Part shown: positions 50,306 through 58,148 of the stretch, piece after piece
How the letters are laid out: each line of letters starts with the position of its first letter
How positions within the stretch are numbered: the stretch's first letter is position 1
Origin: an uncultured archaeon
GTDB taxonomy: Archaea > Thermoproteota > Nitrososphaeria > Nitrososphaerales > Gagatemarchaeaceae
NCBI GenBank assembly: GCA_963799775.1
Contig: CAWCYD010000003.1
Coordinates: 352,001 to 416,000 of the forward strand
Direction: 5' to 3'
Length of the DNA stretch: 64,000 nt
Translations under genes and position numbers: made by a program
The notes under the pieces: generated by a model
What the model saw: the letters and a program-made list of their open reading frames with translations, nothing else
Databases searched by the model: none
Told to the model about the DNA's origin: nothing

Positions 50306-50369
50306 AGTGAGACCTTTCCTCCATAGGACTCTTAAGCCAAAAGCGCGTCCTTTCTCGCAGGGGACGACG

Positions 50370-51938
50370 ATGCACAGGGTCACGATGCTGAGCGCGCTCC
50401 TCGTAGGGCTGCTGGGACTGTCCATCGCGAGCGGAGTTGCCGCATCGTTCGCCGCCGCTGCCCCCAACACTTCGACCGTGGCCGTCGGGACCGCCCCTTC
50501 GGCGATGGTCTACGATGGCAGCAACGGGAACATCTACGTCGCGAACTCCAACTCCAGCTCGGTCTCGGTCATCAGCGGGACGGCGGTGTTGGCCACCGTC
50601 GGGGTCGGCTCGGGCCCCTCGGCCTTGGCATACGACCCTTCGAACGGCTACGTCTATGTCAGCGACACGAACTCGAGCACCGTGTCCGTGATCTCCGGGA
50701 CTACGCTTGTAGGCAGTGTGGGGGTCGGCTCAGGCCCGACGTCCCTCGCATTTGACGCGTCCAACGGCTACGTCTACGTCTCTGACACCAACGTCAAGGG
50801 GAGTGCGAGCCTCCCGGACAACGTGACGGTGATATCTGGGACCACGGTGGTGTCCACAATCTCTGTCGGGTACCTGCCCTCATCGATAATCTACGACCCC
50901 TCGAACGCGTACGTCTACGTGGCGGTCGGGGGCTCCGGCGTGGTCGACGAGATCTCAGGGACCACGGTCGCCGCGACGACGCCCAAGCTCTCCTCGCCCG
51001 GTCCGCTGATCTTCGACCCTAACAACGCTGCGGTCTACGTCGGCAATCTCGGATCTGGGACGGTCTCGGAGATACTCGGGAGCACTCTGGCGGCCAACGT
51101 CACGGTGGGGGTCGACCCTTTATCGATGGCGTTCGACTCTGGCGACAACGACGTCTACGTGGCAAACTTCGACAGCTCAAGCGTCGACGCGATCTCAGGA
51201 TCCTCTATCATGGGAAACCTGACCCTCGGGTTGTTCCCTTCATCGACGATCTACGATGCCTCTGACCAGTCCGTGTACGTCGCAAGCGCCAACCCGGCGG
51301 CGACCCAAGGCACCCTTTGGCAGGTCGAGGGCACCACCCTGATCGGGAACATGACGCTGGGTCCCGAGCCAAGGCCCCTGGGCCCTCAACACATGGTCTA
51401 CGATTCGGCGAACGGAGACCTCTACGTCGCCAACGTCGAATCGGGCAGCGTCCTTGTGATACCTACGGGCGCCCCGGTCAGCTCCACAACGTCAATCACG
51501 TCTACCTCTACGACGTCCACGACGACAACGAGCTCGAGTTCATCGAGCCCCTCCTCTACCACCTCGACGACGTCGGCGTCCAGCACGACGACGAGTTCGT
51601 CGACGACAACCACGGCAACGGCCAGCACCAGCAGCAGCTCGACCACGTCGAGCTCGAGCAGCAGCAGCTCGACTACATCGAGCACCACCGTCTCGCCGCC
51701 GAGCTCAACCTCCACGTCCACCAGCTCGGGAGCTTCCTCGACTCAGACTTCGCCAACGCCTTCTTCGACGTCCTCTACACCGTCTCACACCTCGTCGAGC
51801 AGCACCTCGCCAAGCGTGGCGTCCTCGACCCAGCTCCCGTCTGCCTCCAGCCAACCCACCATCTATGTGGCCGGGGCACTGGGTCTCCTGGGTGCGATCC
51901 TTGTCGCCTCCGCCGTCTTGTTGAGACGACCGCGGTAG
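50370..51938 (+). CDS. YncE/YVTN-type beta-propeller surface protein with Ser/Thr stalk and C-terminal TM anchor
   Basis: ~8 repeats of VG..P..(L/M).(Y/F)D.SNG.VYV; long S/T tract ~51480-51860. Confidence 0.88.
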   Translation: MHRVTMLSALLVGLLGLSIASGVAASFAAAAPNTSTVAVGTAPSAMVYDGSNGNIYVANSNSSSVSVISGTAVLATVGVGSGPSALAYDPSNGYVYVSDTNSSTVSVISGTTLVGSVGVGSGPTSLAFDASNGYVYVSDTNVKGSASLPDNVTVISGTTVVSTISVGYLPSSIIYDPSNAYVYVAVGGSGVVDEISGTTVAATTPKLSSPGPLIFDPNNAAVYVGNLGSGTVSEILGSTLAANVTVGVDPLSMAFDSGDNDVYVANFDSSSVDAISGSSIMGNLTLGLFPSSTIYDASDQSVYVASANPAATQGTLWQVEGTTLIGNMTLGPEPRPLGPQHMVYDSANGDLYVANVESGSVLVIPTGAPVSSTTSITSTSTTSTTTTSSSSSSPSSTTSTTSASSTTTSSSTTTTATASTSSSSTTSSSSSSSSTTSSTTVSPPSSTSTSTSSGASSTQTSPTPSSTSSTPSHTSSSSTSPSVASSTQLPSASSQPTIYVAGALGLLGAILVASAVLLRRPR

Positions 51939-53732: not shown

Positions 53733-54820
53733 ATGCGGTCGGTTTTACGGCTCGTCGCATCTGCGCTGAAATAGGTCAGGATCATTTCTATTCACGAAGA
53801 CCTCCGGCAAAGACTTGGCGCAGATCGTAGGACTCTGGCTGGCAGAAGGCGATCACAAGACATTACGTGAGGTCACCTTCACCAACAATGACTCGAAACT
53901 CATAACCTTCTTTCACCACGTTCTTTGGGAGCACTTTACGCCACGTAACCCGCCAAGAGTCTACGTCTACCGACCGTCCAAGGATGCAACCTTCGACCGT
54001 CCGGTAATGGGCGCAGTTTACAGGTATTACATTGACCGACGGGCCAATGTGCCGTATTACATCTACAGAGTCTCTGGAGTTGAATTAGCGAGAATCTTGA
54101 GAAGAACCTCGCAGACGATATGCGCTGATTCGTCCAATTATCGGGGAATACTTCAGGGGTTCTTTGCCGGAGAAGGCAATATCAAGGAAACCATTGCTCA
54201 TTATTCGAGAGTGCTTAGAATCGCTCAAGGTAAGAGACTCGCTATTCTTGAGCGGATCTTGCGCTTTTTGAGTGTGAAGTTCAGCTACAAGCTGTCAGAA
54301 AGCTCCTACGTAATTTCGGGTCGAGACAACTTGGAAAAGCTATGGAGCATCGGCGTAAGCGAACTGCATTCGAAGAAGCACGCAAAATTTGCTGCTATGA
54401 TGTCCTCGTACCAACAATATCATTATCGACGAGGCTATCTCAGTGCTCGAATATTAGAGATCCTTTCGTTGCCCTTGACTACTCGCCAAATTGCCACCCG
54501 AGTGAATCGGGGTAAATCAAGGGTAAATCATCTATTGACTGCGCTCTGCCGGAAAGGCGAAGTCGAAATGTTCAAGGTTAGAAGCTCATATTATTGGGTA
54601 AGGAGCGACCAACAATGCGTAATAATCTCTAAGGAGAAGTCCACGATTCTAGAAGCGCTCTCCTGTCCTCGGCGACTATCGGAGATCGCCAAGGGCCGTC
54701 AACCGCACCGAGAAGTCAGTTTCCCATAGACTTGCAGAGTTGAACAGGCTCGGTCTTGTCATGAAAGCAAACTCTAATTGGCGAGCAATCGAGGTATCGA
54801 AGCGGGTGATTGTCAAATAA
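53733..54820 (+). CDS. free-standing double-motif LAGLIDADG endonuclease with two C-terminal wHTH domains (frameshift ~54692; start 53733 or 53815)
   Basis: IVGLWLAEGD and ILQGFFAGEGN motifs, FTNND block; LTTRQIATRVNRGKSRVNHLL and RRLSEIAKAVNRTEKSVSHRL after correction; AT-richer than flanks. Confidence 0.85.
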
Positions 54821-55496
54821 CGCTCATCGGTGGGGTCGATGAGGCCGGGAGAGAGCACGACGAAAAGTCGTCTCCCCGCGAGGCTGCGTACTCGGCCCGC
54901 TCGCGGTCGCAGGCGTCTCAATAGAATCATCTAGGCTGCAGGAACTCTCTGAGCTGGGGGTCAAGGACTCGAAGCTCCTCTCACCCAGCCAGCGGGACTC
55001 CCTCTACCCGGAGATCAAGAGAATCTGCAAGGGCGTCGAAGTCTCCTGCATCCCCCCGAAGATGATCGACCGATACGTCAGCAGGGGCAAGAAGTACAGG
55101 CGCCTCAACTACCTCGAGACCATCCACATGGCGAAGGTCATCGACGCGCTCTGCGTCGACGAGGTATTCGTCGACGCTCCGGACGTCAACCCGCCGAGGT
55201 TCACGATGGAGCTCGCCGAGCTGCTCACCACGACCCCACGGATAGTCGCCGAGCACAAGGCGGACGTCAACTACGCGGTCGTCTCCGCCGCCTCGATAAT
55301 CGCGAAGGTGGAGAGGGACCTCGAGGTCGCTGCGCTCAGGGAGATCCACGGCGACTTCGGCTCAGGCTACCCCTCGGACCCTGACACGATAGCCTTCCTG
55401 GAATCATGGGTGAAGAGGCAGAGCTCGCAGCCCGAGTTCGCCCGCAAGAGCTGGAAGACGTGGGAGAGGATAGTCCCGCTCCCCACCCTCGACTAG
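54817..55496 (+). CDS. rnhB: ribonuclease HII, interrupted by a 29-nt candidate intron (exons 54817-54851, 54881-55496)
   Basis: TLIGGVDEAGR|GCVLGPLAVAG, VKDSKLL, VDA, EHKAD, VSAASIIAKV.RD, GSGYPSD. Confidence 0.93.
54852..54880 (+). other. 29-nt bulge-helix-bulge intron in rnhB mRNA
   Basis: Central helix CGGG/CCCG, bulges AGA and CGA, intron stem GAG(C)ACGAC/GTCGTCTC; removal gives GCC GGG AGA GGC. Confidence 0.85.
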
Positions 55497-56170: not shown

Positions 56171-57315
56171 CGCGCCGGAACTCTCTTCGTTGTTCGGGTC
56201 GGGGCGCGGGTGGTTCCTTATACTTTATCCTGATTTCATTTAGTCTCTTCTCCAACAGGCCCGTGAGCTCCCCCGCCTTCTCTCCCCTGAAGTAGTCGAT
56301 CCTCGCTGCGATGGCAATCTTGTTCGCCAACGTGCGCGCGATCTTCCCTCTCTGCCATTTGGGCGCCGTGTGGACCGCCTCGTGCTGGAAGAGTATCCCG
56401 TGCTTCGGAGGCCTGGAGCCTGTCCTTATCGCCCTGAAGAGCGCCTTCTCAGCCCCCAGGACCTGGATCGTGCTGGCCGGAAGCCTGGCCATGCGCTCCA
56501 GCCCTCCCGCCCTGGCGATCAGCCTCGCCCCTATCGTCGCCCCCGCGACCGCGGTGACGTTGGGGGCGATCTTGTTCATCGTAGACTCCACCGTCTCGGC
56601 GAGCCTCTCCCTCTCCGCTGCTGTCTTGACCGCGAGCTCGGCCAGACCGACGATGCGGCGCATGTCCTTGTCTGAGATGCTGCCCCCCTTCGAGCGCTCG
56701 GCAGCGAGCACGATCGCCTCGGCCTTCTTGTCGCCGAACCCTTGCTTCTCGAGGGTCTCCTTGTCGAAGGTGCCCCGCTTTCCGATGTCTATGATCAGCT
56801 TGGCCAGCGCCAAGTTGTCTTTCAGGATGTCTTGAAGCTCAGGGAAATGCAGGCTGTACCACTCCATGGTCCTCTCGGTCGTGATGTTGAGGAACCGGTC
56901 CAGCTCGTCGAGGGCCTGTATCGCGTTGACGAGATGTATGGTCCTCTTTGGAGGAGGCCTCGCTCACCTCCTTCTCCGCCGCGGCTATGGCCCGCGCGCG
57001 AGTGCTCTCAAACGCGCTCTTGGCGTCGGACGCCAGACCCGCCTTTGCAATGATTTCGAACTTCCGCGAGTCCAGCTCGTCGCGCTCGTCGTCCGTTATA
57101 ATCGAGGTCTCGATCCCGAACTCTTCCATCTTCTCCTTCGCGGGCAGGCTCGACACCTTCAGCCGCCCGATGCCCTTCTTCTTGACCCCCTCCGCCACCC
57201 TGCGCAGGTAATCCTCTGCTCCGCCCTCCTTGCCCGACTTTTCCGAGAGGATGATGTCGTCGCCCTGCACGACCACGAAGCCGGCTTCGGTCTCGTAGAG
57301 GATGGGCTCGGCCAA
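56079..57315 (-). CDS. nop5: C/D box RNP protein Nop5/Nop56, frameshift ~56941
   Basis: EWYSLHFPEL, APN, PASTIQVLGAEKALF, PKHG, RGKIAR. Confidence 0.93.
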
Positions 57316-57403: not shown

Positions 57404-57986
57404 ATGTTGGAGTACCGCTGCGAGTACTGCGGGGCAGTCTTCGCGGGAAAGAGGCAAGTTATCGGTCACAAGGTAGGCAAACACATCAAAGTAACCTCGT
57501 TTGCAGAACGCGAAGATCAAGCTCGATGGGTTGACTGAACGTCAGATAGGATACATCGCGGCTTTCTTGGACGGCGAAGGCGGCATTCAAATCACTAGGA
57601 CGACAAGAAAGGACAGGGAATACACCATAGCCCTCCATCCTTGCGTCTACTTTACCAACACGAATCGCGAAGTAATCGAGACGTTGAGGAGGTGGTTCTC
57701 CGCAGGATGTGTCGTGACCGCCAAGGCAAACAAGGAAGGCCACAAGCCAACCCATGTCCTTCACATCACAGGGACGAGGAACATCGTCTCCCTCCTTACA
57801 GTCGTCAGGCCATGCCTCATAGTCAAAGCGAAACAGGCCGACACCATGTTACAATTTTGCAAGAGCCGCCTCACTCACAACGCCGGAAAGGACCGAAGAT
57901 ATACCGAAGAGGAATTATCATTATATATGACTCTCAAAGCACTGAACGAGAGAGGTGTAAAGAAACGCCAACACACGGAAGTCTAA
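57404..57986 (+). CDS. free-standing single-motif LAGLIDADG endonuclease with N-terminal C2H2 zinc finger (1-nt frameshift ~57500)
   Basis: MLEYRCEYCGAVFAGKRQVIGHKVGKH, then YIAAFLDGEGGIQI...FTNTN...PCLIVKAKQA; TATA-like CTTATTA ~25 nt before ATG. Confidence 0.85.
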
Positions 57987-58148
57987 CGAAGGCGGGGAAA
58001 TGCCAAATGGCACCCTTTAGTCCGCGGTCAGACCCCCAAGATAGAAGGCAAACCGCACAAGGGTAAGATCCCCAAAGTGAGGAACACCCGGACCTTCGTC
58101 AAGAGATTCACACTAAAGAGAAAGCCCGGACAGAATTGGAGACTTTAG
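57965..58148 (+). CDS. rps30e: 30S ribosomal protein S30e, interrupted by a 19-nt candidate intron (exons 57965-57999, 58019-58148)
   Basis: Spliced product (M)[53 protein letters not shown]; absent from the ORF track. Confidence 0.92.
58000..58018 (+). other. 19-nt bulge-helix-bulge intron in rps30e mRNA
   Basis: Exon stem GGC/GTC, central helix GGGG/CCCT, bulges AAA and TTA, intron stem TGCC/GGCA; removal gives GGG AAA GTC. Confidence 0.85.

Follow-up and report, generated by a model that had tools for sequence, protein, structure and literature searches.

A tRNA-type mini-intron in the rps30e gene of a soil archaeon, very probably removed by splicing and possibly spread by collaborative homing

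How can the gene for ribosomal protein S30e be read when 19 nt are inserted within its twelfth codon, and how would such an insert be gained and kept? These questions are raised by the window analysed here, a stretch of 64,000 nt from a contig of an uncultured archaeon of the family Gagatemarchaeaceae, in which the two halves of rps30e flank a motif of the bulge-helix-bulge (BHB) type (Table 1). Removal of 58000-58018 at the BHB cut sites regained an S30e of 54 codons. When all cut pairs around the insert were tried, two excisions only, 58000-58018 and 58001-58019, restored the S30e motif; they give an identical product, and the former is the one that follows from the BHB rule, by which each bulge is cut behind base 2. 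Predicted folding of 57978-58036 returned the BHB as both the minimum-energy and the centroid fold. The helices and bulges around Lys12 thus lie exactly at the coordinates claimed in a preliminary description of this DNA, and the S30e signature and 54-codon ORF that it expected after excision were borne out. Scanned separately, the halves of rps30e scored 14.2 and 19.7 bits against Pfam S30 (PF04758), each below the cut-off of 27, and intronless alleles of the same genus, with an exon 2 that is 80-93% identical to that of the window, exceed this cut-off.

Table 1. Features of the rps30e and rnhB loci, with coordinates counted from the first nucleotide of the window
Feature	Coordinates	Strand	Remarks
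Second, different free-standing LAGLIDADG-like ORF	53815..54729	+	Directly upstream of rnhB
Putative relaxed BHB intron of rnhB (RNase HII), 29 nt	54852..54880	+	Lies in the DEAGR motif, inside the Arg codon
Free-standing C2H2-zinc-finger and single-motif LAGLIDADG gene	57404..57986	+	Overlaps the first 22 nt of rps30e
TATA-box-like TTATATA, putative rps30e promoter	57921..57927	+	44 nt upstream of ACG, within the LAGLIDADG ORF
Shine-Dalgarno-like GAGGTG	57952..57957	+	7 nt upstream of ACG, within the LAGLIDADG ORF; conserved on ACG alleles
rps30e exon 1	57965..57999	+	Codons 1-11 and first two bases of Lys12; Pfam S30 positions 2-14
Complete BHB motif	57991..58022	+	3-bp exon helix (GGC 57991-93 / GUC 58020-22), 4-bp central helix (GGGG 57994-97 / CCCU 58013-16), two 3-nt bulges (AAA 57998-58000, UUA 58017-19), 4-bp intron helix (UGCC 58001-04 / GGCA 58009-12)
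Putative Lys12 (site B) BHB intron, 19 nt	58000..58018	+	Restored frame, fold, covariation
rps30e exon 2	58019..58148	+	Last base of Lys12 to stop; Pfam S30 positions 12-57

The fold energy of this BHB is ordinary (z = -1.09, equalled by 30 of 200 shuffles), and strict BHB patterns of lengths 14-70 are frequent in the source genome (G000; 59% GC), with 6686 occurrences. At a fixed site, the chance of a BHB of length 19 is 2.7e-5 (133 in 4.94 million); because the site in rps30e is set independently by the protein motif, the BHB found there is beyond chance. tblastn found no second rps30e in the source genome assembly (82% complete), in agreement with the preliminary description. No contig of the DNA run X1 (share 0.09) bridged the Lys12 intron.

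Two EndA genes (PF01974) and one RtcB gene (PF01139) of the source genome scored over their cut-offs. One EndA keeps the Tyr and His that we take to mark a catalytic subunit, the other is without the His, and the two are presumably a catalytic-looking and a structural-looking subunit; this composition suggests an EndA of the heteromeric type. Based on the BHB structure, the restored frame, the covariation described below, the single locus and the presence of these enzymes, we conclude that 58000-58018 is very probably a tRNA-type (EndA-type BHB) intron of the rps30e pre-mRNA. The transcript, beginning at a putative transcription start, would fold into the BHB, the splicing endonuclease would cut each bulge 3′ of its second base, RtcB would ligate the exons and remake Lys12 as AAA, and the ribosome would initiate at an ACG codon, aided by the Shine-Dalgarno-like element. 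Heteromeric EndA has been linked to relaxed substrates, according to the accessible parts of two papers (PMC10485636, PMC12397907).

The 6686 BHB motifs from the de novo scan of the source genome were reduced to 1968 that join reading frames and to 53 after filters, and inspection of these 53 by eye revealed no convincing further mRNA intron. The filter dropped the rps30e intron itself and the relaxed intron of rnhB described below was missed, and this result is therefore no evidence of absence. The cbf5 gene of this genome is uninterrupted at the GTLD motif, with no intron there.

Exon 2 of rps30e was matched in 74 of 97 genomes of the family, the source genome included; with one contig-edge fragment left out, 73 alleles were compared, and every matched relative (73/73) has a single rps30e locus. 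Inserts were found at two sites, which lie 16 nt apart. Site B, within Lys12, holds an insert of 19-20 nt in 32 alleles, and site A, at Leu7, holds one in 41 alleles, with a length of 31-32 nt in 40 of them and 46 nt in one. Thirteen alleles have both introns and 13 have neither, and 60 of the 73 are interrupted at these two codons with intact exons. The BHB at site B is a full one, with a central helix of 4/4 pairs in 31 of 32 alleles, an intron helix of at least 4 pairs in all 32 and an exon helix of 3 bp in 30. The BHB at site A is relaxed: the central helix is 4/4 in all 41 alleles, including a G-C/A-U exchange at a synonymous exon base, and the exon helix is reduced to 1 bp in 40. The interior of the Leu7 intron (for example L038:1441-1491:+) forms a bulged hairpin of conserved shape. 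The single 46-nt intron (L100, from G258) has grown via a short triplet repeat in the loop and has kept its BHB. The fixed length of the Leu7 intron may point to a function beyond splicing.

A scan of metagenomes with a pattern that fixed exon letters only, some of whose loci duplicate genome alleles, detected 58 site-B loci (47 distinct), with a central helix of 4/4 in 45 of the 47. Among 48 distinct 20-nt introns in a gap-free alignment, 99.2% of pairs were formed and two-sided changes were observed at 7 of 11 pairs, with 103 cells showing such changes as against 33 in shuffles; partners slid out of register were paired at 27-56%. The 19-nt class, to which the intron of the window belongs (16 distinct), was paired at 98.3%, with two-sided changes at 6 of 11 pairs and in 12 cells as against 2.3 in shuffles. 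The pairing and covariation score was matched by none of 500 shuffles for either length class, counts that are not to be read as probabilities since kin are not independent and kinship inflates the controls. Four different pair types at single positions would be hard to get without covariation. Compensatory changes among insert-bearing relatives, which the preliminary description had proposed as a check, are thus present in both length sets. The inner sequence of the site-B intron is unconstrained, indicating that structure is conserved rather than sequence.

The exon codons are constrained where the site-B intron is present, as the synonymous bases at codons 10 and 12 follow the intron: codon 10 is GCG in 26 of 32 alleles with this intron and in 2 of 41 without, and codon 12 is AAA in 32 of 32 and in 15 of 41, respectively. 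In three genomes and seven metagenome copies the 5′ bulge is AAT or AAC, from which Lys is obtained only in the BHB register; this excludes the alternative cut register shifted by one base.

Beyond the family, 294 of 304 genomes of the order matched S30e, about two of them weakly (a tally that includes three unpublished genomes), and across the phylum 242 of 251 genomes were above the S30e cut-off, with intact genes. The weak or missing matches outside the family gave no further candidates: G104 (L240) has a one-base frameshift at codon 7-8, G394 and G535 have no parsable gene, and G028 and G031 gave no match. Three carriers of site B (L134, L141 and L198) have a different type of exon 2 and probably belong to a neighbouring family. 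A site-B search of named records returned 38 hits, 26 of archaeal type (Nitrososphaerales/Thaumarchaeota) and 12 of bacterial type, which were rejected as chance matches; the pattern was absent from viral contigs (0 hits). Leu7-type alleles in joined form were likewise absent from metagenome contigs (0), a count that has no bearing on splicing.

The preliminary description had the gene begin with an ATG (MPTHG). Codon 1 is instead ACG (57965-67), which we take as the putative start from its position, its Shine-Dalgarno spacing and the ATG at the same place in relatives. Its further suggestion, that the intron arose by local duplication of the gene start, is not supported: the gene starts with ACG, ATG opens only 11 of 32 site-B introns, and the interior of the intron changes freely provided that pairing is kept. 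The start codon is associated with the introns. All 41 site-A alleles start with ATG or TTG, and 31 of the 32 alleles without the Leu7 intron have a non-standard codon (29 ACG, one TCG, one GTT; the remaining one is ATG), an association with p ~0.03 in an independent-pair test; ATA and CTG occur among metagenome copies. ACG alleles have an SD-like GGAGG or GAGGTG close upstream, and a TATA-like box lies 44-50 nt upstream in 28 of the 32 alleles without the Leu7 intron, being kept where the LAGLIDADG ORF has decayed. ACG is itself kept in 16 alleles with no detected LAGLIDADG. Sequencing error was rejected as the source of ACG, given its presence in 29 of 73 alleles. C-to-U editing of ACG into AUG is conceivable, but it would leave the ATA, CTG and GTT starts unmended. 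Also rejected was a large intron that encloses the LAGLIDADG gene and splits the start codon: neither a strict scan nor inspection by eye found a BHB joining an upstream AT or ATG to the gene, and the same short leader occurs in G016 (ACG) and G022 (ATG). An ATG, GTG or TTG in the frame of the last exon is lacking in 64 of 73 family alleles, and just one allele combines a standard start with no intron. As the preliminary description had anticipated, S30e would be overlooked or wrongly called by gene callers in the other 72 of the 73.

The LAGLIDADG gene upstream of rps30e is split in the window by an extra base near 57493 (ORFs 57404-57538 and 57501-57986); it is one ORF in relatives, and a 151-nt contig of run X1 is without this base. 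Its product scored over the cut-off for PF14528, and the LAGLIDADG profile matched I-MsoI, I-CreI, I-CvuI and an rRNA-intron endonuclease (E 1e-11 to 1e-6). Near-full-length LAGLIDADG genes were found in 7 of 73 alleles (the source genome counted), all with the site-B intron and none with site A, and fragments in another 7, of which 6 have the site-B intron; the sole fragment-bearing allele without it (G273) has a stop and a frameshift. Site-A alleles have instead an upstream ORF of 200 aa that combines a Cys4 finger with a PD...ExE core, in which PD and E-x-E are invariant. It is whole in 12 and broken in 4 of the 73 alleles, and all 16 have the Leu7 intron. No Pfam family was hit over cut-off by this PD-type ORF, and a PDB sequence search with its profile gave nothing under E 0.1. 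The predicted structure (model pLDDT 78) had Hjc resolvases and R2 endonucleases as best Foldseek rows (best E 2.7e-3, none at or below 1e-3), and its Atlas neighbours were Hjc, Mrr, McrBC and NUMOD3, with scores under 0.9; the model thus weakly resembles Hjc-type nucleases. Within the family, this PD-(D/E)XK-like group (L036:1738-2352:- and homologues) occurs only upstream of Leu7-intron alleles; outside it, G104 (L240) has a PD-like ORF fragment upstream of an intronless rps30e. Metagenome contig L153 carries a mixed cassette, a whole LAGLIDADG in frame with the ATG of rps30e and both introns. Three more LAGLIDADG-like ORFs were noted on contig C3 of the source genome (G000:C3): one at ~1424768-1425149 (+), directly after an intron-bearing tRNA-Ala gene, one at 209312-209981 (+), preceding a conserved gene, and one on the minus strand.

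We lean, with some reserve, towards collaborative homing as the means by which the intron persists and spreads. The LAGLIDADG nuclease would cut the 5′ end of rps30e alleles that are uninterrupted there, the intron would shield its own allele from this nuclease, and repair would copy the nuclease gene, promoter, start codon and intron as one unit; the PD-(D/E)XK-like nuclease gene, the Leu7 intron and an ATG/TTG start would form a rival cassette at the same place. Whole nuclease genes always occur with their intron among genome alleles (LAGLIDADG with site B, 7/7; PD-type with Leu7, 12/12), and site B is present in 13 of 14 alleles with LAGLIDADG sequence as against 6 of 18 among the remaining alleles that lack the Leu7 intron. 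In a tree built from the 420 nt downstream of site B (67 of 73 rows, the other six being too short), intron A changes 16 times and intron B 17 times, as against 9 for genus, and four pairs of sister genomes have opposite cassettes. G249 and G261 have both flanks in common and differ between about -720 and +60, and identity between G323 and L187 is 98-100% over the stretch -900 to +120 but falls to about 85% past it, a break that could stem from a chimeric assembly. Among independent pairs, LAGLIDADG and site B went the same way in 4.6, the opposite way in 0.0 and showed no difference in 3.4 (p ~0.06, not significant), and the PD-type ORF and the Leu7 intron gave a similar value (p ~0.06, not significant); linkage within 60 nt is enough to yield such associations without any immunity. 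In 19 of the 32 carriers of intron B no LAGLIDADG was detected, and 13 of these are on the other cassette. Also counting against homing are the mixed cassette of L153, the PD-like fragment of G104 beside an intronless gene and the frameshift in the LAGLIDADG gene of the source genome as assembled. The nuclease trees largely track the host lineages (Spearman 0.37 and 0.68), and long-range transfer is thus unsupported.

The same layout recurs in the window at rnhB, where the start is seemingly ATA, overlapping the upstream stop (54817-54880 region), with ATG there in G080. Among the best 30 of 85 family matches, 28 were parsed; an insert of 26-30 nt was present in 14, with a central helix of 4/4 in all 14, and a LAGLIDADG-like ORF lay upstream in 11 of the 28, all with the insert.

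The strongest competitor to homing, though one that we judge rather unlikely, is that the intron is spliced and kept for regulation, the output of S30e being throttled by either the Leu7 intron or a weak non-AUG start, with the nucleases as passengers at a hot spot. The complementary distribution of Leu7 intron and start codon (41/41 and 31/32; p ~0.03), the near-constant length of the Leu7 intron (40/41) and the persistence of ACG in 16 alleles with no detected LAGLIDADG are all in line with such a role, but it leaves unexplained both the pairing of each nuclease type with an intron of its own and the recurrence of the nuclease-plus-intron layout at rnhB; moreover, the inner sequence of site B is free, and the rest of the phylum copes with intact genes (242/251). 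Slightly less probable again is a variant of homing in which the LAGLIDADG target is the stretch from the start codon to Leu7, protection comes from the non-AUG start (or the Leu7 intron) and intron B hitch-hikes. Whole LAGLIDADG alleles do start with ACG, ATA, CTG or TCG, the sole ATG one having the Leu7 intron as well, and, read in the nuclease frame, CTG yields the Cys that ATG would also give, so that the overlap does not force a change of start. Against this variant, the enrichment of site B in LAGLIDADG alleles (13/14 versus 6/18) has no explanation, and a non-AUG start could equally guard against the rival PD-type nuclease. Targets at Lys12 and in the start-to-Leu7 stretch are indistinguishable at the sequence level.

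Neutral origins appear improbable. The intron might derive from a tRNA intron, by copying or reverse splicing followed by neutral drift, its presence and absence reflecting old polymorphism and loss, and this agrees with a genome rich in intron-bearing tRNA calls that has the machinery, as well as with nuclease trees that follow the host lineages; yet the intronless alleles mostly lack the codon signature of intron alleles and are thus unlike precise losses, and whole cassettes are swapped between sister genomes. That the ribosome bypasses or frameshifts over the hairpin without any splicing is very improbable: the hairpin is short and close to the start, as bypass would have it, but inserts of 19, 20 and 22 nt require different shifts, the exon-intron pairs and the two 3-nt bulges are conserved with compensation, and 13 alleles would need two such events. 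Hardly credible at all is a pseudogene or assembly artefact. One-base indels do lie nearby (57493, 58617), and a second rps30e copy could be unassembled in an assembly of this completeness; against these points stand the 60 of 73 alleles that are broken at the same two codons and keep intact exons, the one locus in each of 73 relatives and a search of the metagenome collection for Leu7-type alleles in uninterrupted form, which found 0. Taken together, BHB splicing combined with collaborative homing is an explanation that we hold, as a whole, with high confidence. More tentatively, and with considerable doubt, the first 36 bases of rps30e may be contested by two unrelated homing endonucleases, each with an EndA-spliced mini-intron as immunity, while alleles also escape via loss of AUG and some gather both introns; together with rnhB, this would represent a general route of tRNA-type introns into archaeal protein genes.

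Apparent one-base indels break nop5 (56839-56867), the LAGLIDADG gene (57493), elp3 (58617) and the gatD-gatE region (~62850) in the window; they are probably assembly errors, two being absent from contigs of run X1. Elsewhere in the window, 50307-51938 encodes a 543-aa ORF with a signal peptide, beta-propeller-like repeats, a long Ser/Thr linker and a C-terminal anchor, by appearance a surface protein.

Introns in archaeal mRNAs look commoner than the two documented cases suggest. The locus contributes rnhB and a ribosomal protein gene that has two intron sites and some 100 natural variants, both from a soil lineage that is common and whose ribosome assembly would thereby depend on tRNA splicing, and it presents a conserved non-AUG start on an essential-type gene. 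It would also offer an explanation of the gain and spread of BHB introns that can be tested directly, with a named nuclease, a 36-base candidate target and naturally immune and sensitive alleles. The cases of archaeal mRNA splicing named in the accessible parts of the literature are cbf5 and HVO_1309 (PMC7714728, 2020; PMC10485636, 2023), and the 2023 review puts the number of spliced archaeal mRNAs at two, with more to be expected (PMC10485636, in the part available). S30e and RNase HII were reported as intronless in another archaeon, in the available part of PMC3082918. No report of rps30e introns or of archaeal collaborative homing was found in the literature searched, mostly open papers, where a supplementary table could list such introns. 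The Leu7 intron site, the conserved non-AUG start and the two alternating types of upstream nuclease go beyond the preliminary description, which had missed them.

Among known systems, and as far as the accessible text of the papers cited goes, the rps30e intron resembles that of cbf5 in Desulfurococcales and Sulfolobales, a short BHB intron inside a conserved coding motif, with a variable inner part and a heteromeric EndA (PMC2738675, PMC10485636), in whose BHB the cuts fall between the second and third base of each bulge (PMC2738675). In contrast to cbf5, rps30e is a ribosomal protein gene of another archaeal class, with two sites, a patchy distribution within genera and free-standing nucleases alongside; cbf5 splicing was shown by cDNA, whereas splicing of rps30e is deduced from its sequence. 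The HVO_1309 intron of Haloferax volcanii is likewise an EndA substrate in an mRNA but lies in the 5′ UTR, whereas the rps30e intron breaks the reading frame (PMC7714728, PMC10485636, in the parts available). The LAGLIDADG protein shares its motif and domain homology with I-MsoI, I-CreI, I-CvuI and the archaeal rRNA-intron enzyme of PDB 3e54; unlike these, it is encoded outside the intron, carries an N-terminal C2H2 zinc finger and overlaps the start of the host gene. The accessible accounts of phage homing describe how the group I intron of psbA in cyanophage S-PM2 blocks self-cleavage by F-CphI (PMC6083498). As in F-CphI/psbA and the trans homing of T4 mobE, a free-standing nuclease lies beside a conserved gene whose intron would block self-cleavage (PMC6083498, PMC2988022), and, as in T4 segG, the putative promoter of the host gene is embedded in the nuclease ORF (PMC2988022). 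Unlike these phage systems, the rps30e locus lies on a cellular archaeal chromosome, its cleavage is predicted from the nuclease genes, its mini-intron would be spliced by proteins at a BHB rather than by a ribozyme, and two nuclease types appear to compete for the same site.
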